Below are positions 16,356 through 43,150 of a DNA stretch of 64,000 nt, in pieces (positions within the stretch are counted from its first letter, which is position 1; every line of letters starts with the position of its first letter). Source of the DNA: Litorimonas sp. GTDB taxonomy: Bacteria > Pseudomonadota > Alphaproteobacteria > Caulobacterales > Maricaulaceae. The position numbers were made by a program, and so were the translations under genes. Under the pieces are notes generated by a model. That model searched no databases and had not been told where the DNA came from. It saw only the letters and a program-made list of their open reading frames with translations. The stretch is from NCBI GenBank assembly GCA_039975855.1, contig JBDWGH010000001.1, forward strand, positions 31 through 64,030, in the 5' to 3' direction.

Positions 16356-16694
16356 CCCTAAAGTTCCCCACATCACCAATAAGATGCCTTAATTCACACA
16401 ATTGAGCTAAGGTTTCAAAGGGGTCTCATATCTGGGAATAGTTTTATTTCGCTGAGGAATTAGGCTTTATTTATCGTTAATGCCCGTCAGCAGATTTATG
16501 GCTTGAGGTAGAAATCAGCCTAATGAAGTTTGTGTTATCGCAAGAAAGGGACTTTTCGTTGCTGAGTATATAATCAGAAGACGGACAAATTTTCATAATC
16601 TGTAAATTATACCTGTCTGGCCAAAGCAAACAGATATGTTATGACTCTGCCGAAACATCCGGCCAAAACTCTGTGGCGGGAGCGGGAGAGATAC

Positions 16695-17900: not shown

Positions 17901-17977
17901 TCCAAGTCTATGACACCGGGTGTTTTGCGGCCCTGACCGCAAAATAACATAATGATTGCGGCAGTCTTTGGCGTCGA

Positions 17978-19362: not shown

Positions 19363-20577
19363 ATGATAACGTTCTTGCGTAATAATTTCCGGTGGATAGC
19401 AGGGGGACTTTTGCTGACCTTCTTTTCCTCATTCGGGCAGACCTTTTTTATAGGACTGTCTGGCGAAGAGTTGCGGGTTAAATTCGATCTCACAGATGGT
19501 GAGTTTGGCGGGCTTTACATGATCGCAACCATTGGGAGCGCTTTGACCTTGCCCTTTCTTGGGCGAATTTTGGATCATATGCCAGGATGGAAGGTTGCGC
19601 GTTTTGTTATTCCTGGGCTCGCCTGCGCTTGCCTGCTAATGGCCTTTTCGCCTAATCTTATACTCTTGGTTTTGGCAATATATGCGCTGCGTTTGTTTGG
19701 TCAGGGCATGCTGTCACATACGGCTTATACTGAAATCGGTCGTTGGTTTGTAGCTAATCGCGGGCGCGCTACATCGATGATCGTTCCCGGACATCAGTTA
19801 GGTGAAGCTTTACTACCTGTTCTATTCACCGTCATTGCTATTGGTTTGGGGTGGCAAGCGGGATGGTTCTTCGCCGCCGGATTTTTGATGATATTTGCGC
19901 TCCCGCTAATTATAAAACTTTGGAGCATTGAGCGCGTTCCCCAAAGCACCGACCCCGATATTGCGGATGCTCGCCTGGGGCCCGATAAAACTGTCGCGCA
20001 AGTCGCGGCGGATCCAGTTTTTTATGCCTTACTATCTGGCGTTCTTGCGCCGCCCTTCATTGGGACAATTATTTTCTTTCACCAAGACTACCTAATTGAA
20101 CTTCGCGGTTATAACGAATTTGCCTTTGCTGCGGCGTTTCCGGTTATGGCCCTAACGACGGTTACCTTCTCATTAGTCAGCGGGCAGTTAATTGACAGGT
20201 TTGGCGCCATACGATTGCTGCCATTTTATCTAATTCCGCTGTGTTTGGCATCTTTGACTGTGGCACTACTCACGCCTGTTTGGGGGGTCTATGCTTTTAT
20301 GCTTTTGATTGGCCTGAGTTACGGTTTCTCCGCAACGCTCATCGGATCGCTTTGGCCAGAGGTTTACGGCGTGCGAAACCTCGGGTCTGTGCGCGCCCTT
20401 GCCGTGTCGGCGAGTGTGGCCGCCACGGCAATCGGGCCGGGCCTAACAGGTTTGCTGATTGATCGGGGCGTATCACTTCCGACGCAAATGATTTATCTCA
20501 GCGCGTGGTGCCTTACGGCCTGCTTTATCCTCGCATTCACAGTGCCCTATATCCTGAGAAGAAATGCAACACACTGA
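19363..20577 (+). CDS. MFS transporter
   Basis: 404 aa and about 12 hydrophobic segments. MFS-like loop LGRILDHMPGWK between TM2 and TM3. Confidence 0.8.
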   Translation: MITFLRNNFRWIAGGLLLTFFSSFGQTFFIGLSGEELRVKFDLTDGEFGGLYMIATIGSALTLPFLGRILDHMPGWKVARFVIPGLACACLLMAFSPNLILLVLAIYALRLFGQGMLSHTAYTEIGRWFVANRGRATSMIVPGHQLGEALLPVLFTVIAIGLGWQAGWFFAAGFLMIFALPLIIKLWSIERVPQSTDPDIADARLGPDKTVAQVAADPVFYALLSGVLAPPFIGTIIFFHQDYLIELRGYNEFAFAAAFPVMALTTVTFSLVSGQLIDRFGAIRLLPFYLIPLCLASLTVALLTPVWGVYAFMLLIGLSYGFSATLIGSLWPEVYGVRNLGSVRALAVSASVAATAIGPGLTGLLIDRGVSLPTQMIYLSAWCLTACFILAFTVPYILRRNATH

Positions 20578-27752: not shown

Positions 27753-28259
27753 TCATTCATCGATCCATTTTAGTTTTTCTAATGGATACCCAAGATACCA
27801 TTTTGCTCGCTCAAGGATGATGCGTGTTTTTACGACCTTTATTCCTAGGTCCTCGCGAACACTGACCTCATCGATTAAAGCGTTGAGGGCCTGTGTGTTT
27901 GAACAGCATGTAAAACAGATGTAATCGACATCCCCCGTAATACGAAGACAGTCCATAAATTCAGGTATTGTCTCGATTGCGGCTTCGAACCTTTTCCGGA
28001 AAGAGGTTGTGTTATTTTCAAGCGTAAATTCTACATAGGCTAGAACGTGCTCGACCATGCGGTCCAAGTCTAGATCCGTATGAAAGCTAACGAAATACCC
28101 GGCCTCTTTTAAGGCCTTCATGCGTTGAAAACATGCGCTGGGAGACAGCCCCACTTTTTCTGCTAATTCTTGATTGGAGATATCTGAGTTCAGATGCGTG
28201 ATGGATAGAATTTTCTTGTTAATTGCATCCAGTTTCAGGTTCTTTTTCTTTGATGTCAT
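27753..28259 (-). CDS. Lrp/AsnC-family transcriptional regulator
   Basis: MTSKKKNLKLDAINKKILSITHLNSDISNQELAEKVGLSPSACFQRMKALKEAGY (HTH) plus a C-terminal RAM/AsnC domain. ATG at 28259 with a GAGGAT SD. The ORF-track start at 28445 is an extension. Confidence 0.88.
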   Translation of the reverse strand: MTSKKKNLKLDAINKKILSITHLNSDISNQELAEKVGLSPSACFQRMKALKEAGYFVSFHTDLDLDRMVEHVLAYVEFTLENNTTSFRKRFEAAIETIPEFMDCLRITGDVDYICFTCCSNTQALNALIDEVSVREDLGIKVVKTRIILERAKWYLGYPLEKLKWIDE

Positions 28260-28397
28260 CTCATCCTCACTTCTGTGGAAACATAAAGCGAATTTTGATT
28301 TGCCTTCAATGACGAAATTGTTCCGTGTCATGGCTATCCTATTCGATGGATAATTCTGTTTGGATGACGTTAGTATTCTTAAAAAGGGAATGGGTCT

Positions 28398-29681
28398 GTG
28401 GACGAGAATAGTGAATTTGCAGCAGTAAAGATTGCCAGCAATCAATTGGTGCCTTGGCCGCGCGTTGCCGCGGTCGGCGCCATGGTCGCATTTTCGCTCC
28501 CAACTTTTGTGACCGGACTAGAAGTCGGGGCTGGATTGAGCCCCTTGAATACAGTTTGGGCGCTTCTTTGGGGCTCAGTTATTATAGTCATCATTGGTGC
28601 CGTGATGGGCGTTATTGGTGCCAAATCACGCATGAGCTCTTATCTTTTGGTGAGGATTGCATTTGGTGATCACGGCGCGAGTCTGGTCAATATTGCCTTT
28701 GCGATATCCTTATTGGGTTGGTTTGGCGTGAACATAAATCTGTTCATGGATGCTGTCGCAGGTTTGGGGCGAGACGTTTGGGCCGTAGATTTGCCGCCTG
28801 TTGGGCTCGCGATATTTGCGAGTTTTTGTATGACGCTCACCACTTTAATCGGGTTCAAAGCTATCAATATTCTCGCCAGCCTACTGGTCCCTGTCTTGGC
28901 CGTTGTAACGGTTTTGCTCGCGAAACTAGCACTATCGACGCAAACGATTTCCGAAGTTTTCGCGGTCGAAAAGGTCGAGACCCTAACTGTCGGTGAAGGC
29001 ATTTCTGCAATTGTCGGAGCGATTATTATCGGCGCCATAATTCTTCCTGATATCACCCGATTTGTCAGACATTGGAGCGGAGCAATCTATACCGCTATCA
29101 TTTCCTATCTCGTTGTTCAGATGGCGGTCATGGGCGCGGCTGCGCTTGCCGGTGCGACATCAGGTAAAGATGATGTGTTAGAGATCATGTTGGATTTAAA
29201 CTTGGGCATAGGTGCATTCCTCATCGTCATTGCGGGCAGTTGGGTACTTAACTCACTCAACCTTTACAGCGCTGTTCTCGGCATGAAGGCGACTTTTCCC
29301 AAACTGAAAACTATTTTTCTCACGATTGCTTTGGGGGTCATAGGCGTCGCTGCGGCATTGATGAATATCCTCGATAGTTTCATCACATTCCTATTTTACC
29401 TCTCGGTTATTTTCATACCTGTCGCCGGTGTTTTGATCATCGACGCCCTGCTTATTCGGCCAAGTATCTACAAAATAGAGACTTTGGAGAATAACCGCAC
29501 CTTAAACTGGAAGGCCTTTGCGGCTTGGGCTGTTGGCGCTGTCATCGCCGTTTTAGCATCTGACGGATTTATTCCAACCTTGACCAAGATCCCGGCATTG
29601 GATGCGGTTATCCTTTCGGGCGTTCTTTACATCGCTTTGGCGTGGACACAGCGGGAAACGAAACAGGCGACTTCGGCATGA
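28398..29681 (+). CDS. NCS1-family (cytosine/purine/uracil/hydantoin-type) permease
   Basis: 427 aa, about 12 TM and a CodB-like size and layout. GTG start. Divergent from the Lrp gene. Confidence 0.75.
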   Translation: MDENSEFAAVKIASNQLVPWPRVAAVGAMVAFSLPTFVTGLEVGAGLSPLNTVWALLWGSVIIVIIGAVMGVIGAKSRMSSYLLVRIAFGDHGASLVNIAFAISLLGWFGVNINLFMDAVAGLGRDVWAVDLPPVGLAIFASFCMTLTTLIGFKAINILASLLVPVLAVVTVLLAKLALSTQTISEVFAVEKVETLTVGEGISAIVGAIIIGAIILPDITRFVRHWSGAIYTAIISYLVVQMAVMGAAALAGATSGKDDVLEIMLDLNLGIGAFLIVIAGSWVLNSLNLYSAVLGMKATFPKLKTIFLTIALGVIGVAAALMNILDSFITFLFYLSVIFIPVAGVLIIDALLIRPSIYKIETLENNRTLNWKAFAAWAVGAVIAVLASDGFIPTLTKIPALDAVILSGVLYIALAWTQRETKQATSA

Positions 29682-31216
29682 GAATAGGCATTGATGTTGG
29701 CGGCACCCATACGGATGCAGTCATATTAGATGGTGATAAAGTTATCGCAGCGACCAAGGCGTTGACGTCTTCCGATGTCATCTCTGGCGTGACCGCTGCG
29801 CTGGACGAAGTTCTAAAGCAGTCGGCGGTGAGTCAGTCTTCGATCAAAACGGTTATGATCGGGACAACACAATTTACCAATGCGATTGTTGAACGCCGAG
29901 AGCTGTCGAAAGTGGCGGTTATACGTATTGGGCTGCCGTCAGGGCGCGGGATGCCGCCGATGGTGGATTGGCCACAAGACATGATCAATGCCATCGGTGC
30001 GGAAATCTACATCCTGCATGGCGGCTATCTTTACAACGGCTGGCCGGTCGCGGAGATGCGAGATGATGAAGTGAACGCCGCTGTCGAGGATATCCAAGGT
30101 AAGGGCATCAAGAATATCGCTATCGCCTCGGCTTTTTCTCCGATGAATAACACGCCAGAAACGCAGGTTGCGGCGAAAATTCGAGCGGCAATTCCGGATG
30201 CAAACATAACACTTTCGCATAGTTTTGGCCGATTGGGCCTTATGGAGCGCGAGAATGCCGCTATCATGAATACGACCCTTTTGCCATTTGCGGATAGAGT
30301 GGTCAGCTCATTTTTAGGAGCTTTGGCACAACGCGGACTGAATTGCCCCGCTTTCATTAGTCAGAATGACGGAACGTTGATGAACGCGGATTTCGTGCGC
30401 GCTTACCCCGCTCTTACCTTCGCATCAGGACCAACAAATTCACTGCGCGGAGCGTATAAATTGACGGGTTTAGAGGATGCAATCGTTGTTGATATCGGCG
30501 GCACCACTTCGGACATCGGGGTGATCCAAAATGGCTTCCCGCGTGAGTCTAATGTTATCGTAAATATTGGCGGTATTCGCACGAATTTCAGGATGCCTGA
30601 CATTTTGGCGATTGGCTTGGGTGGCGGCAGTCATGTGTCTGATGATGGCACGAAAATTGGTCCGCAGTCTGTCGGGCATAAATTGGTCACAGAAGGCCTC
30701 GTCTTTGGCGGGAAAACCCTCACCACTACTGATATCTTGGTCGCCGGGGGTCATGCCGATATTGGAGATAAATCTAGGGTTGCGCCTTTGGACGGCTCCG
30801 TCCTGACGCGGGCTAAGGCGACGCTCCATAAAATGCTAAACGATAATATCGAGATGATGAAACCGGGTGGAAAAGAAATGCCAGTCATTCTGGTTGGCGG
30901 CGGCGCTATTCTTGTGACGGAGGGTCTCAATGCCGCATCCAATCTCCATCGCCCCGAAAATGCAGGCGTTGCAAATGCCATTGGGGCAGCGATTGCTCAG
31001 GTTGGCGGAGAAGCGGAGCGCATGTTGTCTTACCGTCAAACGCCGCGTGATGAATCCATTGCATCCGTGACCCATGCTGCAACGGAACGGGCGGTTAAAG
31101 CAGGTGCCGATCCAAACACCATAAGAGCTGTCGATATCGAAGAAACGGCAGTGCCCTATATGGACGAAGGTGCAACGCGTGTTCGGGTCAAAGTGATTGG
31201 GGAATTGGCGCGATGA
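29678..31216 (+). CDS. Hydantoinase/oxoprolinase-family protein (HyuA-like, ASKHA fold)
   Basis: MRIGIDVGGTHTDAVILDG... and DIGGTTSDIGVI are the two ASKHA phosphate motifs of the hydantoinase A family. Its ATG overlaps the permease stop (ATGA at 29678-29681). Confidence 0.85.
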   Translation: MRIGIDVGGTHTDAVILDGDKVIAATKALTSSDVISGVTAALDEVLKQSAVSQSSIKTVMIGTTQFTNAIVERRELSKVAVIRIGLPSGRGMPPMVDWPQDMINAIGAEIYILHGGYLYNGWPVAEMRDDEVNAAVEDIQGKGIKNIAIASAFSPMNNTPETQVAAKIRAAIPDANITLSHSFGRLGLMERENAAIMNTTLLPFADRVVSSFLGALAQRGLNCPAFISQNDGTLMNADFVRAYPALTFASGPTNSLRGAYKLTGLEDAIVVDIGGTTSDIGVIQNGFPRESNVIVNIGGIRTNFRMPDILAIGLGGGSHVSDDGTKIGPQSVGHKLVTEGLVFGGKTLTTTDILVAGGHADIGDKSRVAPLDGSVLTRAKATLHKMLNDNIEMMKPGGKEMPVILVGGGAILVTEGLNAASNLHRPENAGVANAIGAAIAQVGGEAERMLSYRQTPRDESIASVTHAATERAVKAGADPNTIRAVDIEETAVPYMDEGATRVRVKVIGELAR

Positions 31217-32307
31217 AGCAGATCGATTTAAGTCATCTCGACGATTTGGCCTTAGGTTCCGTCTTTCTAGCGACAGGCGGCGGAGGTGACCCGCATGTAC
31301 CTCAACTTATCACAGAACAAGCAATCAAGTCTTACGGGCCAGTATCTTTAATAGCGCCAGAGGCATTAGATGATAACGCATTCATTGTTCCCATTGGAAA
31401 TGTTGGCGCGCCAACAGTTAGCTTGGAACTTCTTCCATCTGTCGACGAGGCTGCCAAAACAATTGAAGCCTTTGAAGCGCATATTGGGCGTAAGGTCGAC
31501 GCACTCGCCTCTTTTGAAATTGGTGGGGGTAACTCTCTTATCCCTCTGGTAGCCGCAGCAGTCAAAGGCATTCCAGTCGTTGATGGTGATGGTATGGGCC
31601 GCGCGTTGCCAGAGGCCCAAATGATGTCTTATGCAATCGCGGGCGTGCGGCCAACACCTGCTTTAGCAATGGATTACGCAGGTAATGTGGCAACATTTCA
31701 GACGGATACGACGGAAGTGTATGAGCGCCATATTCGCAGTTTTGCAATGGCCGCAGGAGGTATGATCACAACAGCTGAGCACGCCATGAATGGTTCCGAG
31801 TTGAAGCGCTCTGTGATCCCTGGGACGCTAAGTTTTTCGGTCGAACTTGGGCGCATTTTACGAGAAAATAGAGGGCAAGCCGAAGGTTTGTTGGAACCCC
31901 TTCAAAACGCCTTCTCCGCGTCAATTTACGGGCAATGCAAACTAGTTTTTCAAGGTAAAGTTATCGACAAGGGGACACGTATTGTCGGAGGGTATGACGT
32001 TGGCGAGGCTATCATAGAGCGCTTCGATGGTTCAGGGGAGCCTCTCAAAATTAGAATTAAAAATGAATATCTTCTCGCGACTATCGAGGAGAAGGTCATT
32101 GCCAGTGTCCCGGATTTGATCGTGATTGTAGATTACGAAACTGGAACGCCGATTAATGCTGAGCGCCTACGTTATGGTCACCGAGTCGCCGTTTTCGCTG
32201 TAGGGTGTCCTGATTTTTACCGGACTCCAGCCGCGTTGAAAGTTGTTGAACCGCGCTGCTTTGGTTTTGATATCGATTATGTTGCGCTGGAGGATATTCA
32301 TCCATGA
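31213..32307 (+). CDS. DUF917-family protein
   Basis: N-terminus LALGSVFLATGGGGDPHVP matches the DUF917 G-rich signature. ATGA overlap with the upstream gene at 31213-31216. Confidence 0.8.
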   Translation: MKQIDLSHLDDLALGSVFLATGGGGDPHVPQLITEQAIKSYGPVSLIAPEALDDNAFIVPIGNVGAPTVSLELLPSVDEAAKTIEAFEAHIGRKVDALASFEIGGGNSLIPLVAAAVKGIPVVDGDGMGRALPEAQMMSYAIAGVRPTPALAMDYAGNVATFQTDTTEVYERHIRSFAMAAGGMITTAEHAMNGSELKRSVIPGTLSFSVELGRILRENRGQAEGLLEPLQNAFSASIYGQCKLVFQGKVIDKGTRIVGGYDVGEAIIERFDGSGEPLKIRIKNEYLLATIEEKVIASVPDLIVIVDYETGTPINAERLRYGHRVAVFAVGCPDFYRTPAALKVVEPRCFGFDIDYVALEDIHP

Positions 32308-32466
32308 TTCAGCAACCGCATAAGATGAAAAAAACAGCATCTTTGGCTCAAAGCAAACAATATTCCATCTTTAGAGGTCACTGCAGAATAGCCGAGCTTT
32401 ATCTTGTATTCGCGGCAGCATAACCATTACAAAGACTTAACTAAACCATATTTTGAGGGAAATATT

Positions 32467-35400
32467 ATGGGACTGACATCACCGAAATTTAGAGGACGCC
32501 TAACAGCTTCCGCAAGCTTACTAGCAATGTCGTTTGCTGGACTTTCGACAACAGCGACAGCGCAGGATGCAGCCGCAGATGACGTCATCGTCATTACAGG
32601 TTCGCGGATTCCTCAAGATCCGAACTTACTCTCTTCCATTCCTGTTCAATCTCTTGACAGTGAAGCTATCAAACTCTCTGGCGAAATTAGCTTGGCAGAA
32701 ATTGTCAATGATATTCCGGCGCTTGTCTCTTCTACATCCGTTGAAAATTCCGTTTCCGGCGGAAGTTCTCTGAACCTTCGCGGTTTGGGTGCAGCGCGTA
32801 CGTTGACGCTTGTAAATGGACGCCGCCATGTCGCAGGTTTCCGAGGAACATCTTCCGTTGATGTGGGTTCCATACCTCGTGCCCTTGTTGAGCGAGCGGA
32901 AGTCACAACTGGTGGCGCGTCTGCCATCTATGGTGCAGACGCTGTTACAGGTGTTGTCAACTTTATCCTAAAAGATGACTTCGAAGGGTTCGAAGCTGAC
33001 GTTAGAGGTGGTATCTCCACACATGGCGATGCCGAAAACTTCGTAATTGATGCAACTTACGGCAAGAATTTCGACAATGATCGAGGTAACTTTGTTATTA
33101 GCGCAAGTTATGTCGAAGATACGTCATTGACGAATGCCGATCGATCTTTTTCACGCAACAACAATATTGCTGTCGACCTGGCCAACCCCGCACTTCGATT
33201 GCAAGCGGGCGACCTTGGGTCCGATACGCCTAACTTTAACGACTTGACGATCGGGTCAACTCTTCTGGGCATAGACACGACAGGCCTGACGCTTACTGCG
33301 ACGGAACAAGCTTTAATCGCTCGTGCATCAGGTGCACCTGCGCGGATCATTGCACGAGACCCGCGCGTCTGGTTGTCATCTCAAACAGGTTCTATTGCAC
33401 CCGGATTTGGCGGGCGCGGCACGACCTATGTTGATTTGAACAATAACGGCATCGCCGATTGTCAGGAATCTCGTGGTGGACAAATCGGTTTTCTCGCGGG
33501 TTGTTGGATCACAAACTCAGACGGCTCGGTCAGTGTCTTCGAAGAGTCTCTTATCGGCGACTCCAGCTTCCGTGGCGTAGGGAATCCTGATGGCAGCGGT
33601 AGCGGTGGTTTGTTTAACTTTAATAGAGACACGCTCTATCCGGAAACAGACTCGTTCTCTATCAATGTGAATTCCAATTATGAATTGGCGCCAGGCCTTA
33701 CAGCCTTTGTTGAGGCCAAATATGTTACCGCCGAATCTCGCACGTTTGGGGAGCAAGATTCATTCTATGACACCTTATTCATCGCAGCAGACAACCCCTT
33801 TATCCCTGATGAGCTTCAACCTGTTGTCGCGCAAACAGGTGGATTGCTGCTCACGCAAGACCCGATTGATTTATTGGACAACAACCCAACAATTACCGAA
33901 CGCGAGACGTTCCGCATTGTCGGTGGACTGAAGTGGGAAACCGATAGCGGGCATAAATTTGAGGTTTCCGCCAACCATGGTGAGTTTAAGAATACACAAG
34001 ACTCTTCAACTGTATTCCTCGATCGCCAGTTTGCTGCGACCGATGCTGTTAGAGCGCCTGACGGAAGTATTGTCTGCCGATCTGACTTAGATCCGAACGC
34101 ATTCTATGAAATCGACTATTTTACGGCTGGGAACGGCTTTGCTGATGGCGGTTTTGCATCAAACCGGTACTATTCCTTCACTCCTGGTGATGGCCAGTGT
34201 CAGCCATTGAACCCCTTCGGCGATAATTCGGTCAGTGAGGCTGCACAAGACTTCTTGAGTGCGGATTTAACGGATGAAATCAAACTAACTCAAACTGTTA
34301 TTTCGGGCACAGCCGCAGGTAATATTGACGTACTTTCTAGCCTTCTTGACGGACCAATTGGTTACGCTATCGGTGCTGAATATCGAAATGAGACGAGTGA
34401 AGATACGAAAGATCCGCTCCGCTTGGGTGTGCTGCCACAAGGCACGTCTTTTACGCCCGGCGTATTGTCTAACACGATCGATCCATTCCTAAACTCATTT
34501 ATCAGCATCGATAATGATCAACAGTTCAATACAAGCGGTAGTTATGATGTTCGGGAAGTTTACGGTGAGGTTCGCATTCCAATCTTTAGGGATGCACCTC
34601 TCGCCAAAGAACTTACAGTTGATGCTGCTGTTAGATACGCGGACTACAGCACAGTAGGAGGTCAAACGACTTGGAAGGTTGGTTCAACTTGGGCGCCCAT
34701 CAATGACCTTAGTTTGCGAGGTACTATCTCGAGAGCCGTTCGTGCGCCGAATGTCGCTGAGCTCTTTGATCCTGAACTTCCAATCCAAATTGGCTCTGAT
34801 CAAGATCCATGTAACTTAGAAAATGTAACGCTTGGAACCGCTAATCGCGAAGCAAACTGTGTGGCCGGACTTCTGGCCGCGGGTGTTCCAGTTGCAGATG
34901 TTCAGGATGCAGCAGGTAACTATATCTGGGAAAATCCTCTGACTGGTCGCTTTACAGGGACGTCTGGTGGTAACCCAAATCTTGATGTAGAAACTGCTGA
35001 CACATTCACCATTGGCGCAGTCATTCGTCCTTCCTTCTTACAGGGTTTCTCACTGACTGTGGATTATTGGGATATCGAAATTGAAAATGCCATTTCCGCA
35101 GTTGCTGCAGGAGACATTTTAGAGGGGTGTCATGACTCTGCCGATTTCCCGAATGTACCATTCTGTGGAGCATTTGAACGTCGATCGGATGGAGGTTTGT
35201 CTGATCTAAGCAGTGGCCAAATCAACTTCGCCCGCCTTGAAGCAAGTGGTGTTGATTTCGCGGCGAATTACACATTTGATTTAGGCGAAAATTCGTTTGG
35301 TGCAAATCTTGTTGGATCATACCAAGAGAAACTGGATCGGTTCTTTAATCCGCTTGATCTGACTGAAGTTGATCCAGAATTGCAAGAGGTTCAACGTCCA

Positions 35401-35709
35401 GAGCTTTCAGGCAACCTTCTTCTATCTTGGGATCGAGGGCCAATTGGCGTTGGTTTCCAAACTAGCTATCAGAGCAAGCAATCGGTTGACGAAATTGAAG
35501 ATGTATTAGCTGGACAGTTTGGTGATGCAGGCTTCTTTGATGAGACCTTCATTTTTGACGTAAACGCATCCTATGAGATGAATGATCAATTCACCGTTTA
35601 TGGAGGCGTGAACAATATCGCCGATAAAGATCCATTCTCAACACAAACAGCTTGGCCGGTTGGACCGCGTGGACGCTTTGTCTTCCTAGGTGTGAATTAC
35701 AAAATGTAA
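32467..35709 (+). CDS. TonB-dependent outer-membrane receptor
   Basis: Signal peptide ...LSTTATAQDA, TonB box/plug DDVIVITGSRIPQ...NLRGLGAARTLTLVNGRR, and a long beta-barrel. The ATG at 32467 with a GAGGGA SD is preferred to the track start at 32404. Confidence 0.92.
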   Translation: MGLTSPKFRGRLTASASLLAMSFAGLSTTATAQDAAADDVIVITGSRIPQDPNLLSSIPVQSLDSEAIKLSGEISLAEIVNDIPALVSSTSVENSVSGGSSLNLRGLGAARTLTLVNGRRHVAGFRGTSSVDVGSIPRALVERAEVTTGGASAIYGADAVTGVVNFILKDDFEGFEADVRGGISTHGDAENFVIDATYGKNFDNDRGNFVISASYVEDTSLTNADRSFSRNNNIAVDLANPALRLQAGDLGSDTPNFNDLTIGSTLLGIDTTGLTLTATEQALIARASGAPARIIARDPRVWLSSQTGSIAPGFGGRGTTYVDLNNNGIADCQESRGGQIGFLAGCWITNSDGSVSVFEESLIGDSSFRGVGNPDGSGSGGLFNFNRDTLYPETDSFSINVNSNYELAPGLTAFVEAKYVTAESRTFGEQDSFYDTLFIAADNPFIPDELQPVVAQTGGLLLTQDPIDLLDNNPTITERETFRIVGGLKWETDSGHKFEVSANHGEFKNTQDSSTVFLDRQFAATDAVRAPDGSIVCRSDLDPNAFYEIDYFTAGNGFADGGFASNRYYSFTPGDGQCQPLNPFGDNSVSEAAQDFLSADLTDEIKLTQTVISGTAAGNIDVLSSLLDGPIGYAIGAEYRNETSEDTKDPLRLGVLPQGTSFTPGVLSNTIDPFLNSFISIDNDQQFNTSGSYDVREVYGEVRIPIFRDAPLAKELTVDAAVRYADYSTVGGQTTWKVGSTWAPINDLSLRGTISRAVRAPNVAELFDPELPIQIGSDQDPCNLENVTLGTANREANCVAGLLAAGVPVADVQDAAGNYIWENPLTGRFTGTSGGNPNLDVETADTFTIGAVIRPSFLQGFSLTVDYWDIEIENAISAVAAGDILEGCHDSADFPNVPFCGAFERRSDGGLSDLSSGQINFARLEASGVDFAANYTFDLGENSFGANLVGSYQEKLDRFFNPLDLTEVDPELQEVQRPELSGNLLLSWDRGPIGVGFQTSYQSKQSVDEIEDVLAGQFGDAGFFDETFIFDVNASYEMNDQFTVYGGVNNIADKDPFSTQTAWPVGPRGRFVFLGVNYKM

Positions 35710-35738
35710 AAGCCGCCGAGGGATCTGCTACAATACGG

Positions 35739-35765
35739 ACGGAGGCTTCGGCCTCCGTTTTTTTA
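35739..35765 (+). terminator. Intrinsic terminator after the TonB-dependent receptor
   Basis: ACGGAGGC-TTCG-GCCTCCGT followed by a T7 run. Confidence 0.85.
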
Positions 35766-35804
35766 TGCCTTTATGATGTTCGATAGAGCGATTAAGCCAA
35801 CTCT

Positions 35805-37592
35805 ATGAACGATGTACAGACTTACCAAAAGCTAATGTCTAAAGGCAAAGCGTTCCTAAAGAACGATGATTATTCTGCCGCAAAACTGTCTTTGGAGGCG
35901 GCTTTAGGTTTGGTGCCAGATAGCTACGAAGGCTGGTTAGATCTGTCGACTAGTTTGTACCACCTCAAATCTTTTTCTGACGCAATTAAGGCTTGCGAAC
36001 GCGCGGAAAAGTTCGATCCACTTAAGAAAGAGTTCCAACAGATTCAACAGGCTATGCATTCGCGCCAATTCGCGACGGCCCAATCCATAGCTAGGGATAT
36101 GCTCAAGAAACACCCAGGGCACCCACGAGCAGTGTTTACATTGTCTCATCTTTTACAAATGCGTAACGCTTTTGAAGATCAAGTTGCGATCTTAAAGTTA
36201 GGGTTAGAACATTCACCAGCAAATGTTCACTTGAGGAAAACCCTGATCGCCGCCTATCAAGACATGGGCGATGTAGAAGAAGCTATAAAATCCGCTACCG
36301 ATCTATTTGATTTGGAGAGTGGTTTTTCGAATGCTTGGTCACGCATCGGATTGTTTATTCGCTATGGTTTCAATGAAAGCGCTCTGAATGCCTGTCAGGC
36401 TGCGAGGCCGTTATGTGGAGATAATAAGGCTCTAATCAGCGAATTAGACTTACTCCAGGGTCACGCACTAAAAACCTTGGGTCGAAGGGAAGAGGCTATC
36501 GCTTCCTACCGCGCATGTATTGTCAATAAGCCGAAAAGCGGTGCTCCATGGTGGGCTTTAGCTGATCTCAAAACCTATGAGTTCTCTTCTTCAGAGATAC
36601 AAAGTTTGGAATCGCTAATTCAATCCAAATCTCTAAGCCCTGAACATCAGTGCCAAGCCTTATTTGCCTTAGCAAAAGCCCATGAAATGAAATCCGGATT
36701 AACGGAGGCCATGCCTCATTACGAACGAGCGAATGCTGCCTATCCATATTTTCGATTTGACGCCGTGAGGTTTAGAAATGGAGCCAAACTCCTAGTGAAT
36801 TCATTCAATAAATCCGCGGTCTTCAAACAAGCAAAGCCAATCCCGAATGGACCTAGGCCAATTTTCATTGTCGGATTGCCAAGATCCGGTTCAACCCTTT
36901 TAGAGCAAATTCTCGCAAGTCACTCTCGGATCGAAGGCACAATGGAATTGCCTGTTTTACCGAACATCAAACGCAAAATGCATTTGACCGCGCTCAATAA
37001 ATTTTCGAAGTCGTTTTTACAAAATCTCGACCTTTTCTCAGAAAAGGATCTAAGTCATTTCGGACAGGATTACTTAAATGAGAGTGCTGTTTTCAGATCA
37101 GAGAATGCGCCGTTCTTTATAGACAAACTCCCCCATAATTTTGAACATATTGGGCTCATACATAAGATTCTTCCTAACGCCGTAATATTGGATATCAGGC
37201 GCCATCCGATGGATTGTGGATTGAGCTTGTTTAAGCAATTTTTCGCACGTGGGGTGGAGTTTAGTTACAAATTGCAAGACATTGGAGCTTATTATTCTAG
37301 CTATCAAAACATCATGTCCCATTGGGATGAAGTTTTACCGAACCGTGTTTTGCACATTCAGTATGAAGAACTTGTTCAAAACTTGGAACCGCAATTACGT
37401 ATTATCTTAAAACATATAGGTGTGGACTTTGAGACAGCCTGTCTTGAATTCTACAAGTCCAAGCGAGCCGTTCGTACAGCCAGTAGTGAACAAGTTAGAA
37501 TGCCAATTTTCACTTCCGCTATTGGAGTTTGGAAGGAGGTTGAAGAAAATCTATCGCCATTGAAAACGGCATTAAATCATGGTGTGAACTGA
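35805..37592 (+). CDS. TPR-repeat-containing sulfotransferase-family protein
   Basis: The N-terminal ~330 aa are TPR-like helical repeats. The C-terminal domain has the PAPS 5'-phosphosulfate motif GLPRSGSTLLEQIL and DIRRHPMDCGLS. There is no signal peptide. Confidence 0.85.
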   Translation: MNDVQTYQKLMSKGKAFLKNDDYSAAKLSLEAALGLVPDSYEGWLDLSTSLYHLKSFSDAIKACERAEKFDPLKKEFQQIQQAMHSRQFATAQSIARDMLKKHPGHPRAVFTLSHLLQMRNAFEDQVAILKLGLEHSPANVHLRKTLIAAYQDMGDVEEAIKSATDLFDLESGFSNAWSRIGLFIRYGFNESALNACQAARPLCGDNKALISELDLLQGHALKTLGRREEAIASYRACIVNKPKSGAPWWALADLKTYEFSSSEIQSLESLIQSKSLSPEHQCQALFALAKAHEMKSGLTEAMPHYERANAAYPYFRFDAVRFRNGAKLLVNSFNKSAVFKQAKPIPNGPRPIFIVGLPRSGSTLLEQILASHSRIEGTMELPVLPNIKRKMHLTALNKFSKSFLQNLDLFSEKDLSHFGQDYLNESAVFRSENAPFFIDKLPHNFEHIGLIHKILPNAVILDIRRHPMDCGLSLFKQFFARGVEFSYKLQDIGAYYSSYQNIMSHWDEVLPNRVLHIQYEELVQNLEPQLRIILKHIGVDFETACLEFYKSKRAVRTASSEQVRMPIFTSAIGVWKEVEENLSPLKTALNHGVN

Positions 37593-37768: not shown

Positions 37769-38950
37769 TTAAACCGACAGGACATCCCAACAGGCCCCCA
37801 TTGTATGGTAGCCTGTTTTTCCGTGTGGTGATTTTTTGTTGTCTATGGCTGACCCGTCACGATTGCGAACGCGAAACCATTCGCCATACGTATGGTCAAT
37901 CATATGATCCCAACTCCATCGCCAAATTCGCCGATAGTCCATTAAGTATTTTTCTTGACCCGTTGCCTTGTACAGCCTCCAGGCAGCTGCAAAACCTTCT
38001 GCTTGAACCCAGAAGTATTTTTCAGTCGCGCAATAGCTGGCATCGGGCGCGACGCCATAGACGATGCCGCCGAATTCATTATCCCAACCTGATCTTATAG
38101 CATTTTCATATAGGTTTTGCGCTTTAATGACCCATTTTTCATTTGGCCTTTCACCGTTCAATATCATGAGTAGCTTACTCCACTCTAATTGATGACCGGG
38201 CTGAAAGCCCCACGGTTTGTATCGGTCATTGGGCTTATCGATATTATACTCCATATCAACGTTCCAATTGGCGTCATAATGCTCCCAGATTTGTCCCTCT
38301 GACTGAGCGGCTAGGTCGACTGTAAATTTCTGCGCTAGCTGTTCAGCGCGATCTATAAAGCGAATATCTTCTGTTGCCTGCCAAGCAGCCAGTAAAGCTT
38401 CGCACATATGCATATTCGCGTTCTGTCCGCGGTAAGGGGACAGATTATCTAGAGTTTGATTGCGCTCATCAAAATATGCACCGCCTGAGGCGTCCCAAAA
38501 ATGGGTTTCCATAAAGTCGAAGGTCTCGTTTAACGTTTGGTGCGCTGAAGGGACTCCGACGCGAAGACACGCTGCGGCCGCCAAAATAACGAAAGCATGG
38601 CCATAGGCCATGACGCGAGTATCCGTGACAATGTCTTTTTCGATCAGCCAAGCATAATGACCATTGGGTTGTTTGTGGGCCGTGTTGAGAAAATTTAACC
38701 CCCATTTCGCCCATTCCAGATGCTTTGGATTGCCGTATAGGCGGTAGGCGGTCGCGTAGTTAAACACATATCTAGCGGATCCAACTAACTGACGACTGTC
38801 GGGGTCGAAGCACTCTCCATTGTCGAGGAAGCAGCCGTAGAAACCGCCGTCTTGGCAGAACACTCGTGGATCATAAAATGCAAGTGAGGACGCGATATGC
38901 TTCTCTAAGAAGTCCGGCCGTTCAAAAATAGAGTCGTCCAGCATGTTCAT
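37769..38950 (-). CDS. AGE-family (N-acylglucosamine 2-epimerase / aldose-ketose isomerase fold) protein
   Basis: 393 aa. (alpha/alpha)6-barrel family motifs RGQNANMHMCEALLAAW and GFQPGHQLEWSKLL. Confidence 0.8.
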   Translation of the reverse strand: MNMLDDSIFERPDFLEKHIASSLAFYDPRVFCQDGGFYGCFLDNGECFDPDSRQLVGSARYVFNYATAYRLYGNPKHLEWAKWGLNFLNTAHKQPNGHYAWLIEKDIVTDTRVMAYGHAFVILAAAACLRVGVPSAHQTLNETFDFMETHFWDASGGAYFDERNQTLDNLSPYRGQNANMHMCEALLAAWQATEDIRFIDRAEQLAQKFTVDLAAQSEGQIWEHYDANWNVDMEYNIDKPNDRYKPWGFQPGHQLEWSKLLMILNGERPNEKWVIKAQNLYENAIRSGWDNEFGGIVYGVAPDASYCATEKYFWVQAEGFAAAWRLYKATGQEKYLMDYRRIWRWSWDHMIDHTYGEWFRVRNRDGSAIDNKKSPHGKTGYHTMGACWDVLSV

Positions 38951-38970: not shown

Positions 38971-40278
38971 TCAGGCTTTGGCTTGCATGAGTTCGGCGAA
39001 ACGGGCTTCTACGCCTGTGAAACCCATATACGCAATCACGAGAGAGAAGAGTAATATTAGGACGAGGATAAGATTTGAGATCAATCCATTTTTATATGCG
39101 CCCATCAATTTTGTCTGATTAGTGAGGTAGAAAATGCAGAGAACTGTTGCCGGAAGAATGATAGCACCAAAAGCCTGGGAAACGAGCATAACCAATACGG
39201 GTCTGGCACCTAGTAATGGCACAACTAACCCAAGCAGTGAAATAAAGAACACCATGATGCGATAACGCGAAAGCGTCATATCCCGGCTTGTGCCTCTATA
39301 ATCGCAGATCAACCAAGGTAGCATCAAAACATTTGGGAATTGGGAAGATACGCCAGCAGAGATAATTCCAATCGCAAAAATAGATGTCGCCAATGGCCCC
39401 GCCAGCGGTTCAAGAAGGCTAATCATCTGGGAAGCTTCTGTGAGCTTTATGCCTGCGACATGTAACGTTCCGGCGGCGGCGGCCATGATAGCGGCGCTTA
39501 TCACGAACATTAAGCTGACGGAGACAAGCGCGTCATTGCGCTGGGTTTTCTCATCGTCCAGTGTCCAACCAGCTTCTTTTACGAGCGTTGTGCGGATGAT
39601 GAATAGTCCCGAGAAAACGGTCGTGCCAACCATTGAAGCGATCACGAGTAAAGATCCTTTTTTAGCTGTGGGGTCCACCTCAGGTATTGCTGGAATGAGG
39701 CCTTTGAGAATATCCAGGGGAGGCGGCATCATGATAAAGAAATTTATCAAAAAACAGGCCGACATGATCGCGACGATAACGGCGAGGCTGCGCTCAAAAA
39801 ACTGCGTCTTTCCATTCCAAAAGATAAAAAAGACCAACGCAGAGAAAGTGGCGGCGAACCATATTGGCGCGATGCCGCCATCAATCATTGTCTTGGACCA
39901 TTCAAAACAAATATCAGCGACGATCCCCATAACACCCATGACGCTGCCAGCGACGCCCAACGTCAAAGCGACGATGAAATAAACACCAACCAAAGGATGA
40001 ATGTGTTTTTTGAAGGCCTGAAGGGCCGTCTCTCCGGTCACTAATGTATAGCGGCCGTAAAGGTTGATCATGAAATAAGTACAGAGGCAGGACGCAACGA
40101 GTGCCCAAAGAAGCGTCATCCCGTAATCTGCGCCGGCTTTGGCCATGGCCGTCACGCTTCCGGTGCCAAGATTGAACCCCAGAAGGAAAATTCCAGGAAG
40201 GAAAAGAGCCAAGGTACGGGCAAATTTTTGACGGGATCCTAATGCGTGAATTTCGTCTTCATTACTGACCTTGTTCAT
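38971..40278 (-). CDS. Nramp-fold (MntH-like) transporter lacking the canonical metal-binding residues
   Basis: TM1-2 region LPGIFLLGFNLGTGSVTAMAKAGADYGMTLLW aligns to Nramp GPGFLVAVAYIDPGNFAT..AGA.FGY.LLW, and ...RYTLVTGETALQA aligns to the RLGIVTG motif. DPGN is replaced by GTGS, and the TM6 motif A-T-V-M-P-H by T-T-V-F-S-G. ATG at 40278 with a GGGGAA SD. Confidence 0.75.
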   Translation of the reverse strand: MNKVSNEDEIHALGSRQKFARTLALFLPGIFLLGFNLGTGSVTAMAKAGADYGMTLLWALVASCLCTYFMINLYGRYTLVTGETALQAFKKHIHPLVGVYFIVALTLGVAGSVMGVMGIVADICFEWSKTMIDGGIAPIWFAATFSALVFFIFWNGKTQFFERSLAVIVAIMSACFLINFFIMMPPPLDILKGLIPAIPEVDPTAKKGSLLVIASMVGTTVFSGLFIIRTTLVKEAGWTLDDEKTQRNDALVSVSLMFVISAAIMAAAAGTLHVAGIKLTEASQMISLLEPLAGPLATSIFAIGIISAGVSSQFPNVLMLPWLICDYRGTSRDMTLSRYRIMVFFISLLGLVVPLLGARPVLVMLVSQAFGAIILPATVLCIFYLTNQTKLMGAYKNGLISNLILVLILLFSLVIAYMGFTGVEARFAELMQAKA

Positions 40279-40485
40279 AATGTTTCCCCAATTTATTCGC
40301 ACAATTGAATGAGGTTTTCTCCAGAACTCGACCCATTGTGACTTTGTTCGACGCTAGAGCGTGCACAAGTATATGTCTATGCCAATTGTGCATGCCATTT
40401 TTATGGACCAGTTAGAGCGTGACATTAGCTAGGTCGTAATTTACCCTGAACAGGTCTTCTATAATCCGGATGTGCCAATACGAAT

Positions 40486-41958
40486 ATGAGCCCGTTATCA
40501 GCCATTAATCTGCCCAATCAGATTCAGTCGTATGAGTATGACCGGAACGCAATAACATCGGGAATTGTCCATTTTGGAATCGGAAACTTTCATCGCGCGC
40601 ACCAAGCTGTCTATTGCGATGATCTTTTGAACCGAGGAGACACGAACTGGGGTATCACGGGCGTTTCCTTACGGTCTTCTTCCATGCGCGATTCCTTGAA
40701 ACCGCAAGATTACCTCTACACGCTAGCAACATTGGGTGAGACGACCGAATACCGCATCATCGGCGCAATCCAAGATGTGGTTGTTGCGCCCGAAGAGCCT
40801 GAGGCTGTGATCAATTTAATTTCACGTCCATCGACCCAACTTATTAGTTCGACGATCACCGAGAAAGGTTATTATCTTGCATCGTCTAAGATTGACTTTT
40901 CTCATCCAGATTTGCGCGCTGAATTAGCCTCATTGGATACACCTAAAACCATCTATGGATTTTTGGCGCGCGGTCTTATTTCTCGGGCGCAGGAAGATGC
41001 GCAGGCGAAACTGACGATAATGTGCTGCGATAATATCTCCAAAGGCGGTGAGTTTCTCAAGGATGGCGTCGCGCGTTTATTGGCACAGCACAGCCCGGAA
41101 ACCAGAGAGTGGGCTGACAAACATGTCGGCTTCGTTTCGTCTATGGTTGACCGTGTTTGTCCCGCGACGGATGAAAAATTACGGCAGTCCGTAAGCGAAG
41201 ATACAGGTCGAAAAGACGCCTGGCCCGTATCGGCGGAACCATTTTCACAATGGATTATTGAAGGCAATTTTGTGGGTGAACGCCCAAATTTCGAGGATGT
41301 GGGCGCGGTTTTTGTGGACGACATTAAGCCATTTGAGCAGATGAAATTACGTTACCTGAACGCTGCACATACTATCGCTTCGACGTTGGGGTATTTGAGC
41401 GGAGATGCTTTTGTACATGAAGCGCTCGCACGAGCGGAGATTTTCGACTTCATGCGACAGGCGCTAAAAGAAAATGTTCTGCCCCACGCCGCGGTGCCGA
41501 ATGGGTATGATGGGTATGACTATATTGCGAGTGTCATCAAGCGGTTCCAAAATGAAAACCTACCGTATGCCAATCTGCAAGTTGGGACAGACAGTTCTCA
41601 GAAAATTCAGCAAAGATGGTTCCCGACAATTGACGCCGCAGTCGCGAAAAATGCTGAAATACCTTATCTTGAATTTTGCCTTGGGGCATGGGTCATATTC
41701 ATTCAAACGGCACTGGAAAACGGAGTGCTGAATGACCCTAAGAAAGAGGCCCTCGCTCAGGTTAGGAGGACTGATATGAATACCTGTGTCTCATCCTATC
41801 TGGCAATTGCATCCGTGGCTGATTTCCCGTTCTCTCAAAAGATTGAAGTTACTCAGGCGGTCGTGCGTCATGCAGAAACAATTCAAACAGATGGAATACA
41901 GACCGCGCTAGAAAATTTCCTGCTTGCGCAAACACAGAAAGAGCAAAACTATGCGTGA
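40486..41958 (+). CDS. uxuB: Mannitol dehydrogenase-family oxidoreductase, probably fructuronate reductase (D-mannonate oxidoreductase)
   Basis: GIVHFGIGNFHRAHQAVYCDDLL N-terminal Rossmann motif, 490 aa. It overlaps uxuA by 8 nt. Confidence 0.75.
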   Translation: MSPLSAINLPNQIQSYEYDRNAITSGIVHFGIGNFHRAHQAVYCDDLLNRGDTNWGITGVSLRSSSMRDSLKPQDYLYTLATLGETTEYRIIGAIQDVVVAPEEPEAVINLISRPSTQLISSTITEKGYYLASSKIDFSHPDLRAELASLDTPKTIYGFLARGLISRAQEDAQAKLTIMCCDNISKGGEFLKDGVARLLAQHSPETREWADKHVGFVSSMVDRVCPATDEKLRQSVSEDTGRKDAWPVSAEPFSQWIIEGNFVGERPNFEDVGAVFVDDIKPFEQMKLRYLNAAHTIASTLGYLSGDAFVHEALARAEIFDFMRQALKENVLPHAAVPNGYDGYDYIASVIKRFQNENLPYANLQVGTDSSQKIQQRWFPTIDAAVAKNAEIPYLEFCLGAWVIFIQTALENGVLNDPKKEALAQVRRTDMNTCVSSYLAIASVADFPFSQKIEVTQAVVRHAETIQTDGIQTALENFLLAQTQKEQNYA

Positions 41959-43150
41959 GTCTTGGAGATGGTTCGGTCCAAATGATTCTGTAACTTTGGA
42001 CGAAATTCGCCAGACAGGTGCGACTGATATCGTCAGCGCATTGCATACCGTTCCGGCCGGAGATGTTTGGAAGATTGACGCGATTAAAGCGTACAAAAAT
42101 CTAATCGAAAAGACCCCTAACGGCATGCAAGCTCTCCGTTGGACTGTGGTGGAAAGCATTCCGGTTCATGAGGACATTAAATTGGGAAAACTGGGGTGCG
42201 AGAAGTATGTCGACGCGTGGGCGAAATCCATGGTCAATTTAGCGCGGTGTGGGGTAAAAACCATTTGCTATAATTTTATGCCCGTTATTGATTGGACCCG
42301 AACGGATTTGAAATTCCAACTTCCAAGTGGTGCCTACGCCCTGCGGTTTGATCAGGATAAATTTGCCGCATTTGATCTATTTATTTTGAAACGTGAAAAT
42401 GCAGAATCCGACTACTCCTCCGCTGAGTTAGAGACGGCCAAAGCTGTATTTTCGGAAATGAGCGACGCAGAAAAAACGCAGCTTACAAATAATATTATCG
42501 CCGGTCTGCCAGGCAAAATGACTGAGAGTTATGACTTGGACAGTTTCCGCCAACAGCTCGCCCAATATCAAGCCATTAGCAGCCAACAACTTCGACAGAA
42601 TTTACTTCGTTTTTTGGATGTCGTTCTACCCCTTGCCGAAGAACATGATGTGAAACTGGCCATCCATCCCGATGACCCGCCACGCGACATGTTTGGCTTG
42701 CCGCGAATTATCTGCACGGCTGATGATTTGAATACGCTTTTCGATCTAGCGCCAAGTCCCGCAAATGGGATTACACTATGCGTTGGAACTTATGGCAGTC
42801 GTCCGGATAACGACTTGCCGCAAATGGCGAAAGATTTTGGATCCCGCATTCATTTCTCTCATCTGCGTGGAGTTACGCGTGATCCGCGGGAGCAACGGTC
42901 ATTTTACGAGGCGAACCACCTCGACAGCGATATTGATATGGTTTCTGTCATTCGAAACTTGCTGTTAGAAGAGAAAAAACGGAGTCAGGGAGACGGTGAG
43001 GGCGCGGAGATATTCATTCGCCCGGACCATGGCCATCAAATGATGGGCGATATCAACAAAACCAATAACCCCGGTTATTCGGGTGTTGGGCGATTGAAGG
43101 GATTAGCTGAGGTTAGGGGCGTTATTCGCGCTTTGAAAGCTGTGATCTAA
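41951..43150 (+). CDS. uxuA: Mannonate dehydratase
   Basis: MRESWRWFGPNDSVTLDEIRQTGATDIVSALH... is the typical UxuA N-terminus. About 399 aa. Confidence 0.9.
   Translation: MRESWRWFGPNDSVTLDEIRQTGATDIVSALHTVPAGDVWKIDAIKAYKNLIEKTPNGMQALRWTVVESIPVHEDIKLGKLGCEKYVDAWAKSMVNLARCGVKTICYNFMPVIDWTRTDLKFQLPSGAYALRFDQDKFAAFDLFILKRENAESDYSSAELETAKAVFSEMSDAEKTQLTNNIIAGLPGKMTESYDLDSFRQQLAQYQAISSQQLRQNLLRFLDVVLPLAEEHDVKLAIHPDDPPRDMFGLPRIICTADDLNTLFDLAPSPANGITLCVGTYGSRPDNDLPQMAKDFGSRIHFSHLRGVTRDPREQRSFYEANHLDSDIDMVSVIRNLLLEEKKRSQGDGEGAEIFIRPDHGHQMMGDINKTNNPGYSGVGRLKGLAEVRGVIRALKAVI

Follow-up and report, generated by a model that had tools for sequence, protein, structure and literature searches.

An Nramp-fold transporter without the metal site of its family, encoded in a sugar-acid gene cluster of Litorimonas sp.

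The transporter gene and its replaced metal site

The window analysed here is a stretch of 64,000 nt from the genome of Litorimonas sp. (assembly GCA_039975855.1, contig JBDWGH010000001.1), and its subject is a gene at 38971..40278 on the reverse strand that specifies a 435-aa transporter of the Nramp fold with 11 transmembrane (TM) helices, from which the metal site and proton relay of that family are missing. The gene starts with an ATG at 40278, preceded by a GGGG ribosome-binding stretch, and its relatives are named Nramp-family divalent metal transporters in the databases. Membership of Nramp/SLC11 by Pfam score holds over the whole domain (PF01566, E-value 5.9e-57; 193.8 bits, cut-off 29.8; profile positions 1–356 of 357), and no other PF01566 gene occurs in the genome. 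The protein falls below the cut-offs of the NCBIfam models for MntH (NF001923, 91.3 vs 430 bits) and nramp (TIGR01197, 29 vs 272.5 bits), and passes that of the generic model NF037982 (69.7 vs 50 bits). An AlphaFold model computed from a 66-sequence alignment (mean pLDDT 92, pTM 0.91) has eleven long helices and interrupts TM1 at residues 37–38 and TM6 at 221–222, the two unwound helices of the 11-TM LeuT-type fold. Foldseek searches with this model ranked the solved Nramps first (DraNramp, TM-score 0.85–0.87; Bacteroides fragilis MntH, 0.86; EleNRMT, 0.82), the amino-acid transporters of the APC superfold being next-best and well behind. Assignment of the protein to the Nramp fold is secure. 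An open reading frame (ORF) of 180 aa lies antisense within the gene (window 39440–39982, forward strand) and recurs in 40–47 related loci; the simplest reading is that it arises from conservation of the coding sequence on the opposite strand and is no gene.

Residue correspondences were read from phmmer alignments of the protein with DraNramp and B. fragilis MntH, in which the surroundings of TM1 and TM6 are free of gaps. The TM1 motif D-P-G-N is replaced by G38-T39-G40-S41 (40156..40167, reverse strand), as the direct translation (GTGS) confirms; relative to DraNramp, D56 has become G38, P57 has become T39 and N59 has become S41, while G58 is kept as G40. The TM6 segment (39592..39627, reverse strand) is GTTVFSGLFIIR by alignment and direct translation. 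Here F222, S223 and G224 take the places of M230, P231 and H232 of the M-P-H motif, T219 that of A227, and an invariant arginine, R229, that of the second TM6b histidine, H237. Along with H237, the acidic residues of the TM3/TM6b proton pathway are gone, with L105 at the position of E124, S112 at that of D131 and G115 at that of E134. DraNramp Q378 alone is retained, as Q368. A first-pass annotation, made by a model from the letters and their translations, had claimed a gap-free TM1 match with Asp and Asn changed to Gly and Ser, and in TM6 a change of Met to Phe and of His to Gly. The computed alignments agree, placing GTGS opposite DPGN and FSG opposite MPH, and do not bring the Asp, Asn or Met ligands back into register; the losses at E124, D131, E134 and H237 go beyond those listed earlier. 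None of the hallmarks of metal-transporting Nramps (D-P-G-N in TM1, A-x-x-M-P-H in TM6 and the TM3/TM6b proton relay) is present, and the pattern of NRMTs, in which the TM1 Asp is retained and Asn/Met are modified, is also absent, the Asp position being Gly38.

The TM1 and TM6 motifs and R229 are invariant or nearly invariant across 73 relatives, which argues that the loss of the canonical motifs is a selected state, and neither chance nor the decay of a degraded copy. Word-indexed and exhaustive searches returned thousands of relatives. Those with 57–91% identity come from Alphaproteobacteria (Hellea, Litorimonas, Algimonas, Robiginitomaculum), from Gammaproteobacteria (Aliiglaciecola, Glaciecola, Gayadomonas, Porticoccus, Pseudohongiella) and from Flavobacteriaceae, Saprospiraceae, Pirellulaceae and Pontiellaceae. 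G-T-G-S/A in TM1 and G-T-T...R in TM6 are retained down to about 33% identity; relatives at 24–31% have G-P-G-T and V-V-P-Y-N-L-F-L-H instead, and one tested member of this distant group (P0226) scores nearer the canonical Nramps. By its motifs the transporter appears to belong to a distinct, highly conserved clade with G-T-G-S in TM1 and G-T-T-x-F-S-G...R in TM6, and it shares the traits common to this GTGS clade (G-T-G-S/A; G-T-T...R-S/T/P; a position in an operon of the uronate/2-keto-3-deoxygluconate (KDG) pathway). A quick tree of the close family, used solely for grouping by taxon and context, groups the sequences by class and by type of context. The homologue in a metagenome-assembled genome of the Flavobacteriales (L074:7001–8251) carries an internal stop, and may be a pseudogene or reflect an assembly error.

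Partner enzymes, gene neighbourhoods and distribution

The transporter shares its operon with a gene for an aldose-ketose isomerase of the AGE superfamily (37769..38950, reverse strand; Pfam GlcNAc_2-epim, E-value 1.2e-99), which begins 20 nt past the transporter stop and whose product has D-mannose isomerase as its top NCBIfam match, under the cut-off of that model. Divergent from the transporter is a uxuB-like gene (40486..41958, forward strand) for a long-chain oxidoreductase of the mannitol-dehydrogenase family (Pfam Mannitol_dh and Mannitol_dh_C), which reaches 264 bits with the NCBIfam model for fructuronate reductase and 288 bits with that for DalD, both under cut-off. The next gene, uxuA (41951..43150, forward strand), specifies D-mannonate dehydratase and passes the equivalog TIGR00695 (499.6 bits vs a cut-off of 199.6). 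Its start reads ATGCGTGA, giving the N-terminus MRESWRWFGP, and its ATG at 41951 overlaps the uxuB-like stop (41956–41958), so that the two genes are translationally coupled and the dehydrogenase therefore most plausibly makes mannonate. Gene calls together with Pfam and NCBIfam matches thus bear out the earlier description of an AGE-family gene 20 nt from the transporter, with uxuB-uxuA divergent. The divergent promoter region between the two operons (40279..40485) contains two blocks, AATTGGCATAGACA and TCTAGCGTC, that are conserved in orthologous loci (L002–L005 and L020) and are candidate operator or promoter elements. It also contains one 10-nt inverted repeat (40359–40368 / 40386–40395), which is not conserved in the orthologous loci compared, and no regulator gene lies near the region.

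Eighty loci were fetched, their ORFs called and clustered, and the clusters named by Pfam and NCBIfam. Adjacency was counted in those with 1.5 kb or more of sequence to either side of the transporter, a set of 62 that spans Alpha- and Gammaproteobacteria, Bacteroidota, Planctomycetota and Kiritimatiellota. In 55 of these the transporter lies directly beside UxuA, an AGE isomerase, a 364-aa cupin resembling phosphomannose isomerase (PMI), a UxuB-like dehydrogenase or ManD, so the linkage to sugar-acid genes, on which the first-pass annotation had made its proposal depend, is strongly conserved across phyla. The AGE isomerase is found in 13 loci and the cupin in 24, never both in one locus, as expected of analogous isomerases. 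The cupin is a divergent relative of class I PMI (1qwr/TIGR00218). Genomes that carry it retain UxaC, which indicates that the extra isomerase is no stand-in for glucuronate isomerase there and serves another substrate.

The arrangement varies with the lineage. The layout of the window, in which UxuA-UxuB diverges from transporter-AGE, is the one seen in Alphaproteobacteria, where a cluster of ManD, a GFO/IDH/MocA oxidoreductase and an SSF symporter often lies alongside. Gammaproteobacteria have a TonB-dependent receptor followed by UxuA-(cupin)-(UxuB)-transporter, or a UxuA-transporter pair appended to a complete alginate operon, and alginate operons reading PL17-KdgF-MFS-reductase-KdgK-UxuA-transporter were found in L010, L057, L060 and L075. 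The isomerase, the UxuB-like enzyme and UxuA stand in single operons in Alteromonadales. In Bacteroidota, Planctomycetota and Kiritimatiellota a transporter-cupin pair lies inside polysaccharide utilisation loci (PULs), one of which (L044) is a flavobacterial alginate PUL. The cupin gene of Zobellia laminariae (L032:8244–9339) is apparently split into two ORFs, and may be a pseudogene or an assembly error.

The survey for the transporter gene took in a sample of 201 genomes of the host's order; these are related to one another, so that the counts describe the pattern and do not amount to a statistical test. Ten genomes have the gene. All 10 carriers have a PF05426 alginate lyase, as against 31 of the 191 other genomes, and seven have a PL7 lyase (8/191 elsewhere); GH92 is found in none of the carriers and in 24 of the others. 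Full-length UxuA occurs in just six of the 201 genomes, all of them transporter-positive and always in the same cluster as the transporter, which it directly adjoins in G020, G133, G135 and G173; the uxuB-like gene stands between the two in Litorimonas sp. itself (G000) and in G103. UxaC occurs in 47 genomes, most of which lack UxuA. Four carriers are without UxuA (G019, G053, G068 and G123), and in G019 the transporter gene ends a pure alginate operon that has neither UxuA nor an isomerase. The nesting of the pattern is complete within genus and family. The ecological tie of the transporter is alginate degradation.

The genome of Litorimonas sp. itself is 99.4% complete and gave no match to UxaC (PF02614). 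It has UxuA and the UxuB-like gene and departs from the Ashwell pathway in this missing UxaC, so the AGE enzyme is its sole candidate source of fructuronate. It carries one PL7 lyase (C2:891200–892135) and one PL17-like lyase. An alginate locus apart from the window (C4:476314–493924) comprises Eda, an MFS transporter, the PL17-like lyase, GntR, a reductase of the beta-hydroxyacid-dehydrogenase type and a TonB-dependent receptor. Away from the transporter (C3:238934–243124) there is also a cluster of ManD, a GFO/IDH/MocA oxidoreductase, an SSF symporter and a protein of about 280 aa. Its ManD passes the D-mannonate dehydratase equivalog, and the cluster adjoins the transporter module in many Alphaproteobacteria (L004, L006, L016–L018, L052, L079, L084, L090 and L091); it might be a route by which saturated uronates are reduced, or one by which mannose is oxidised.

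A survey of 151 Flavobacteriaceae genomes, from which twelve loci were fetched, found the close family at 60% identity or more in three genomes and one further relative at 47% (G221). About two dozen of the 151 carry a sister paralogue of about 40% identity with the motif GTGS...FLSRP, and ten of the fetched loci represent this paralogue. Six of the ten have it inside alginate PULs, either next to lyases of PL6, PL7 and PL17 or as the last gene of a GntR-MFS-SDR-KdgK-Eda operon, which ties a second, separate subfamily of the GTGS clade to uronate catabolism. In one flavobacterial alginate PUL (L098:8489–10369, reverse strand), a fusion of a shikimate-kinase-type gluconokinase and 6-phosphogluconate dehydrogenase adjoins the sister Nramp-like gene, and would fit a reduction of L-guluronate to D-gluconate.

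These distributions bear on whether the protein might still carry an inorganic cation, either Mn2+ for UxuA or the isomerase, or Mg2+, Ca2+ or Na+, held by backbone carbonyls and Ser/Thr hydroxyls. UxuA is a metal-dependent enzyme, Q378 is kept as Q368, and the gene is the sole PF01566 member in its genome. Canonical Nramp genes can also occur in metabolic operons, and the family member YcsG has been reported as a manganese importer, MntG (PMC10448178). Set against this are the replacement of all side-chain ligands (Asp, Asn, Met) and of the whole acidic/histidine relay, with an arginine fixed on TM6b, the presence of the gene in genomes without UxuA and of the sister subfamily in alginate PULs without UxuA, and a distribution that tracks alginate lyases and no general need for metal. 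Supply of metal to UxuA fits these facts poorly, and we consider cation transport of any of these kinds quite improbable.

Proposed substrate and alternative readings

The first-pass annotation had judged a transition-metal substrate unlikely and suggested that the Nramp/LeuT-type fold was recruited here for an organic substrate, such as a hexose or hexuronate, or for a different ion. Loss of the ligands and the conserved sugar-acid linkage support this, and the partner enzymes sharpen the idea, pointing to a manno-configured hexuronate that would feed mannonate and then KDG. Only one linear pathway employs aldose-ketose isomerase, long-chain dehydrogenase and UxuA in turn, namely aldohexuronate to fructuronate, mannonate and KDG. 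The aldohexuronates that yield fructuronate are two, mannuronate and glucuronate, of which the former is favoured because of the association with alginate, the manno-specific relatives of the isomerases and the coexistence with UxaC. That the transporter imports a manno-configured hexuronate, probably saturated D-mannuronate, for conversion to KDG by AGE, the UxuB-like reductase and UxuA is a proposal to which we give an even chance.

According to this proposal, the protein would be a secondary transporter with the Nramp/SLC11 fold that has ceased to carry divalent transition metals. At the unwound centre of TM1 and TM6, small and hydroxyl residues in place of the metal ligands would open a larger, neutral pocket, for which the invariant R229 on TM6b is a candidate counter-charge to the substrate; a carboxylate might be bound by R229 and the GTGS backbone. 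Saturated D-mannuronate released in alginate breakdown would be carried into the cytoplasm, the inward direction and a coupling ion being presumed. The co-transcribed AGE isomerase, if active on the uronate, would convert D-mannuronate to D-fructuronate, the divergently transcribed UxuB-like reductase would form D-mannonate, and UxuA would dehydrate this to KDG for the KdgK/Eda route. In loci with UxuA alone, the reductases of alginate operons could reduce mannuronate directly to mannonate.

Several points weigh against mannuronate. Alginate lyases give mostly unsaturated monomers and saturated mannuronate should be a minor product, so its source is unexplained by lyase chemistry. Among PDB entries the uxuB-like protein scores higher with mannitol 2-dehydrogenase (297 bits) than with YdfI (230 bits), and by score alone it is as near to the former as to mannonate oxidoreductases. 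The AGE protein matches PDB 5x32 with 403 bits and roughly 50% identity (by eye on the alignment), and we take this entry, whose code is unconfirmed, to be a Marinomonas enzyme characterised on neutral D-mannose. The transporter-cupin pair is flanked by GH38/GH92 alpha-mannosidases, GH2, mutarotase and sulfatases in L055, L058, L066, L067, L073 and L042, contexts from Bacteroidales, Polaribacter, a Planctomycetes and a Pontiellaceae genome that suggest neutral mannose. Lastly, three of the five genomes with UxuA plus transporter only have no Mannitol_dh, AGE or cupin homologue, and so would need a different step or the direct uptake of mannonate.

The match to 5x32, the kinship of the cupin with class I PMI and the alpha-mannosidase loci, together with the D-mannose isomerase model as top match of the AGE protein and the ManD-GFO-SSF cluster often next door in Alphaproteobacteria, could be read as signs that the protein imports neutral D-mannose or another manno-hexose. 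The AGE enzyme or PMI-like cupin would then produce fructose, and the link to UxuA would be an oxidative branch from mannose through mannonate to KDG. No linear pathway from mannose, however, uses the isomerase, the UxuB-like enzyme and UxuA, although Alteromonadales carry all three in single operons and, in the window, uxuA is translationally coupled to the uxuB-like gene. The carriers in the host's order are also uniformly equipped with alginate lyases (10/10) and devoid of GH92 (0/10), and the sister subfamily sits in alginate PULs. We hold mannose import to be unlikely, though a live alternative on account of the alpha-mannosidase contexts in some Bacteroidota, which it fits better than mannuronate does. 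A related reading, in which mannitol or mannose is turned into fructose on account of the likeness of the UxuB-like protein to mannitol 2-dehydrogenase, was ranked low for the same coupling of uxuB-like to uxuA.

If the substrate were D-mannonate, UxuA would be the first cytoplasmic step, and AGE and UxuB, where present, would feed extra substrates into the pool. UxuA is the commonest direct neighbour of the transporter in Proteobacteria (21 loci), in the host's order it occurs only beside the transporter gene, and the three genomes with no isomerase or UxuB homologue would be accommodated. UxaC is absent from G004 and G005, the two of the five UxuA-only genomes in which it was sought. The pairing with an isomerase in 37 of the 62 loci and the four carriers without UxuA (G019, G053, G068 and G123) would be left unexplained, and we know of no environmental source of free mannonate; we rate this reading as very unlikely.

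Another uronate-type substrate (D-glucuronate, L-guluronate, an unsaturated monomer such as DEH, or KDG) is the remaining alternative. Glucuronate, like mannuronate, isomerises to fructuronate, the Litorimonas genome is without UxaC, the G019 gene ends an alginate operon that lacks UxuA and isomerase, and the sister subfamily comes after MFS-SDR-KdgK-Eda. Carriers of the cupin isomerase, on the other hand, keep UxaC and so already handle glucuronate. Characterised relatives of both isomerase families are manno-specific (class I PMI, 1qwr/TIGR00218, for the cupin and, if our assumption about its identity is right, 5x32 for AGE), and DEH and KDG have no need of UxuA. This alternative, too, seems to us to have a low probability. 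Replacement of UxaC for glucuronate was the first reading of the locus and was lowered because cupin carriers keep UxaC; a KduI-like isomerisation of DEH by AGE or the cupin was rejected, as it leaves UxuA without a role.

Further genes of the window lie outside the module. Just upstream of the AGE gene are a 1101-aa TonB-dependent receptor and a protein with TPR and sulfotransferase domains (32404–37592, forward strand), which are not conserved beside the module in related loci. A separate cluster, for the catabolism of a cyclic amide, lies at 27753–32307, where the genes for an NCS1 permease, a hydantoinase/oxoprolinase A-type protein and an S-Me-THD-like protein diverge from that for an AsnC-type regulator; the hydantoinase-type genes, 8 kb upstream, come with an NCS1 permease of their own. 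Two tandem M19 membrane dipeptidase genes (16641–19192, forward strand) are followed by an MFS transporter (19363–20577).

Relation to known systems and significance

The canonical Nramp/MntH proteins, H+-coupled importers of Mn2+ and Fe2+ (DraNramp, 8e5s/6c3i; B. fragilis MntH, 10ky; ScaDMT, 5m94), belong to the same Pfam family and share the 11-TM LeuT-type fold. The Litorimonas transporter has 18–24% identity to them and differs in the exchange of DPGN for GTGS and of MPH for FSG, in the loss of E124, D131, E134, H232 and H237, and in a context of sugar-acid catabolism rather than metal homeostasis. EleNRMT (7qia) and the plant protein NRAT (8ont) also have altered sites and selectivity, and match the model with Foldseek TMt values of 0.82 and 0.72. 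EleNRMT (Mg2+) and NRAT nevertheless bind a metal cation and keep the TM1 Asp, whereas the Litorimonas protein has Gly there and no acidic ligand at any canonical ligand position.

Conceptually, the nearest precedent is PxpT of Corynebacterium glutamicum (cg1142) and YcsG of Bacillus subtilis, members of the Nramp family whose genes belong to a catabolic operon for an organic carboxylate. They are genetically required for the utilisation of 5-oxoproline, and uptake of the organic anion is supported (PMC13274462), though YcsG is also the protein claimed as MntG (PMC10448178). The transporter described here has 16% identity to the YcsG model (9a52_A) and is partnered by uxuA, AGE and uxuB rather than by pxpABC, which sets it apart from PxpT/YcsG. 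In the Ashwell pathway, the role proposed here, delivery of a hexuronate or aldonate to UxuB and UxuA, is filled by ExuT, GntP and TRAP transporters, whose folds (MFS, GntP, TRAP) are unrelated, and the isomerase beside the transporter, AGE or PMI-like cupin, is not orthologous to UxaC of that pathway. APC transporters such as AdiC, LAT1/BasC and ApcT share the superfold and have a G-S/T-G motif in the unwound TM1. Their glycine-rich TM1 backbone binds the carboxylate of the substrate, an analogy that suggests how GTGS might work. Identities to the APC proteins among the Foldseek hits listed are 11–15%, and there is no family membership at the level of sequence.

We infer that the transporter is a variant of a known family that has taken up an organic substrate. 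The sole paper found to touch on the GTGS clade labels a member 'Nramp, metal-ion transporter' in alginolytic loci of Alteromonas, and literature searches aimed at the GTGS clade and at the proposed mannuronate pathway found no paper describing either. A broader and more tentative hypothesis, which we would place somewhat below an even chance, is that the whole Nramp/SLC11 branch with GTGS in TM1 and an Arg on TM6b consists of importers of uronates or sugar acids, which together with AGE-type and PMI-like isomerases would make up an undescribed route from saturated D-mannuronate through D-fructuronate and D-mannonate to KDG in alginate-degrading marine bacteria of several phyla.

The textbook view of SLC11/Nramp confines the family to metal cations (Mn and Fe and, by variation, Mg and Al). 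If the proposal is correct, a metal-ion fold has been re-purposed for an organic anion, and a clade that moves sugar acids would widen the chemistry of the Nramp fold and offer a natural experiment in how the site of a LeuT-type fold switches from cation to organic anion. Thousands of 'divalent metal transporter' entries would be misnamed; the clade is abundant in marine metagenomes, where it is uniformly annotated as a manganese/iron transporter, and annotations of metal homeostasis and of PULs would be distorted alike. For marine carbon cycling, the transporter would supply a missing inner-membrane step of alginate use, and may add a pathway for saturated uronates, which current schemes, running from lyase to DEH and KDG, ignore.

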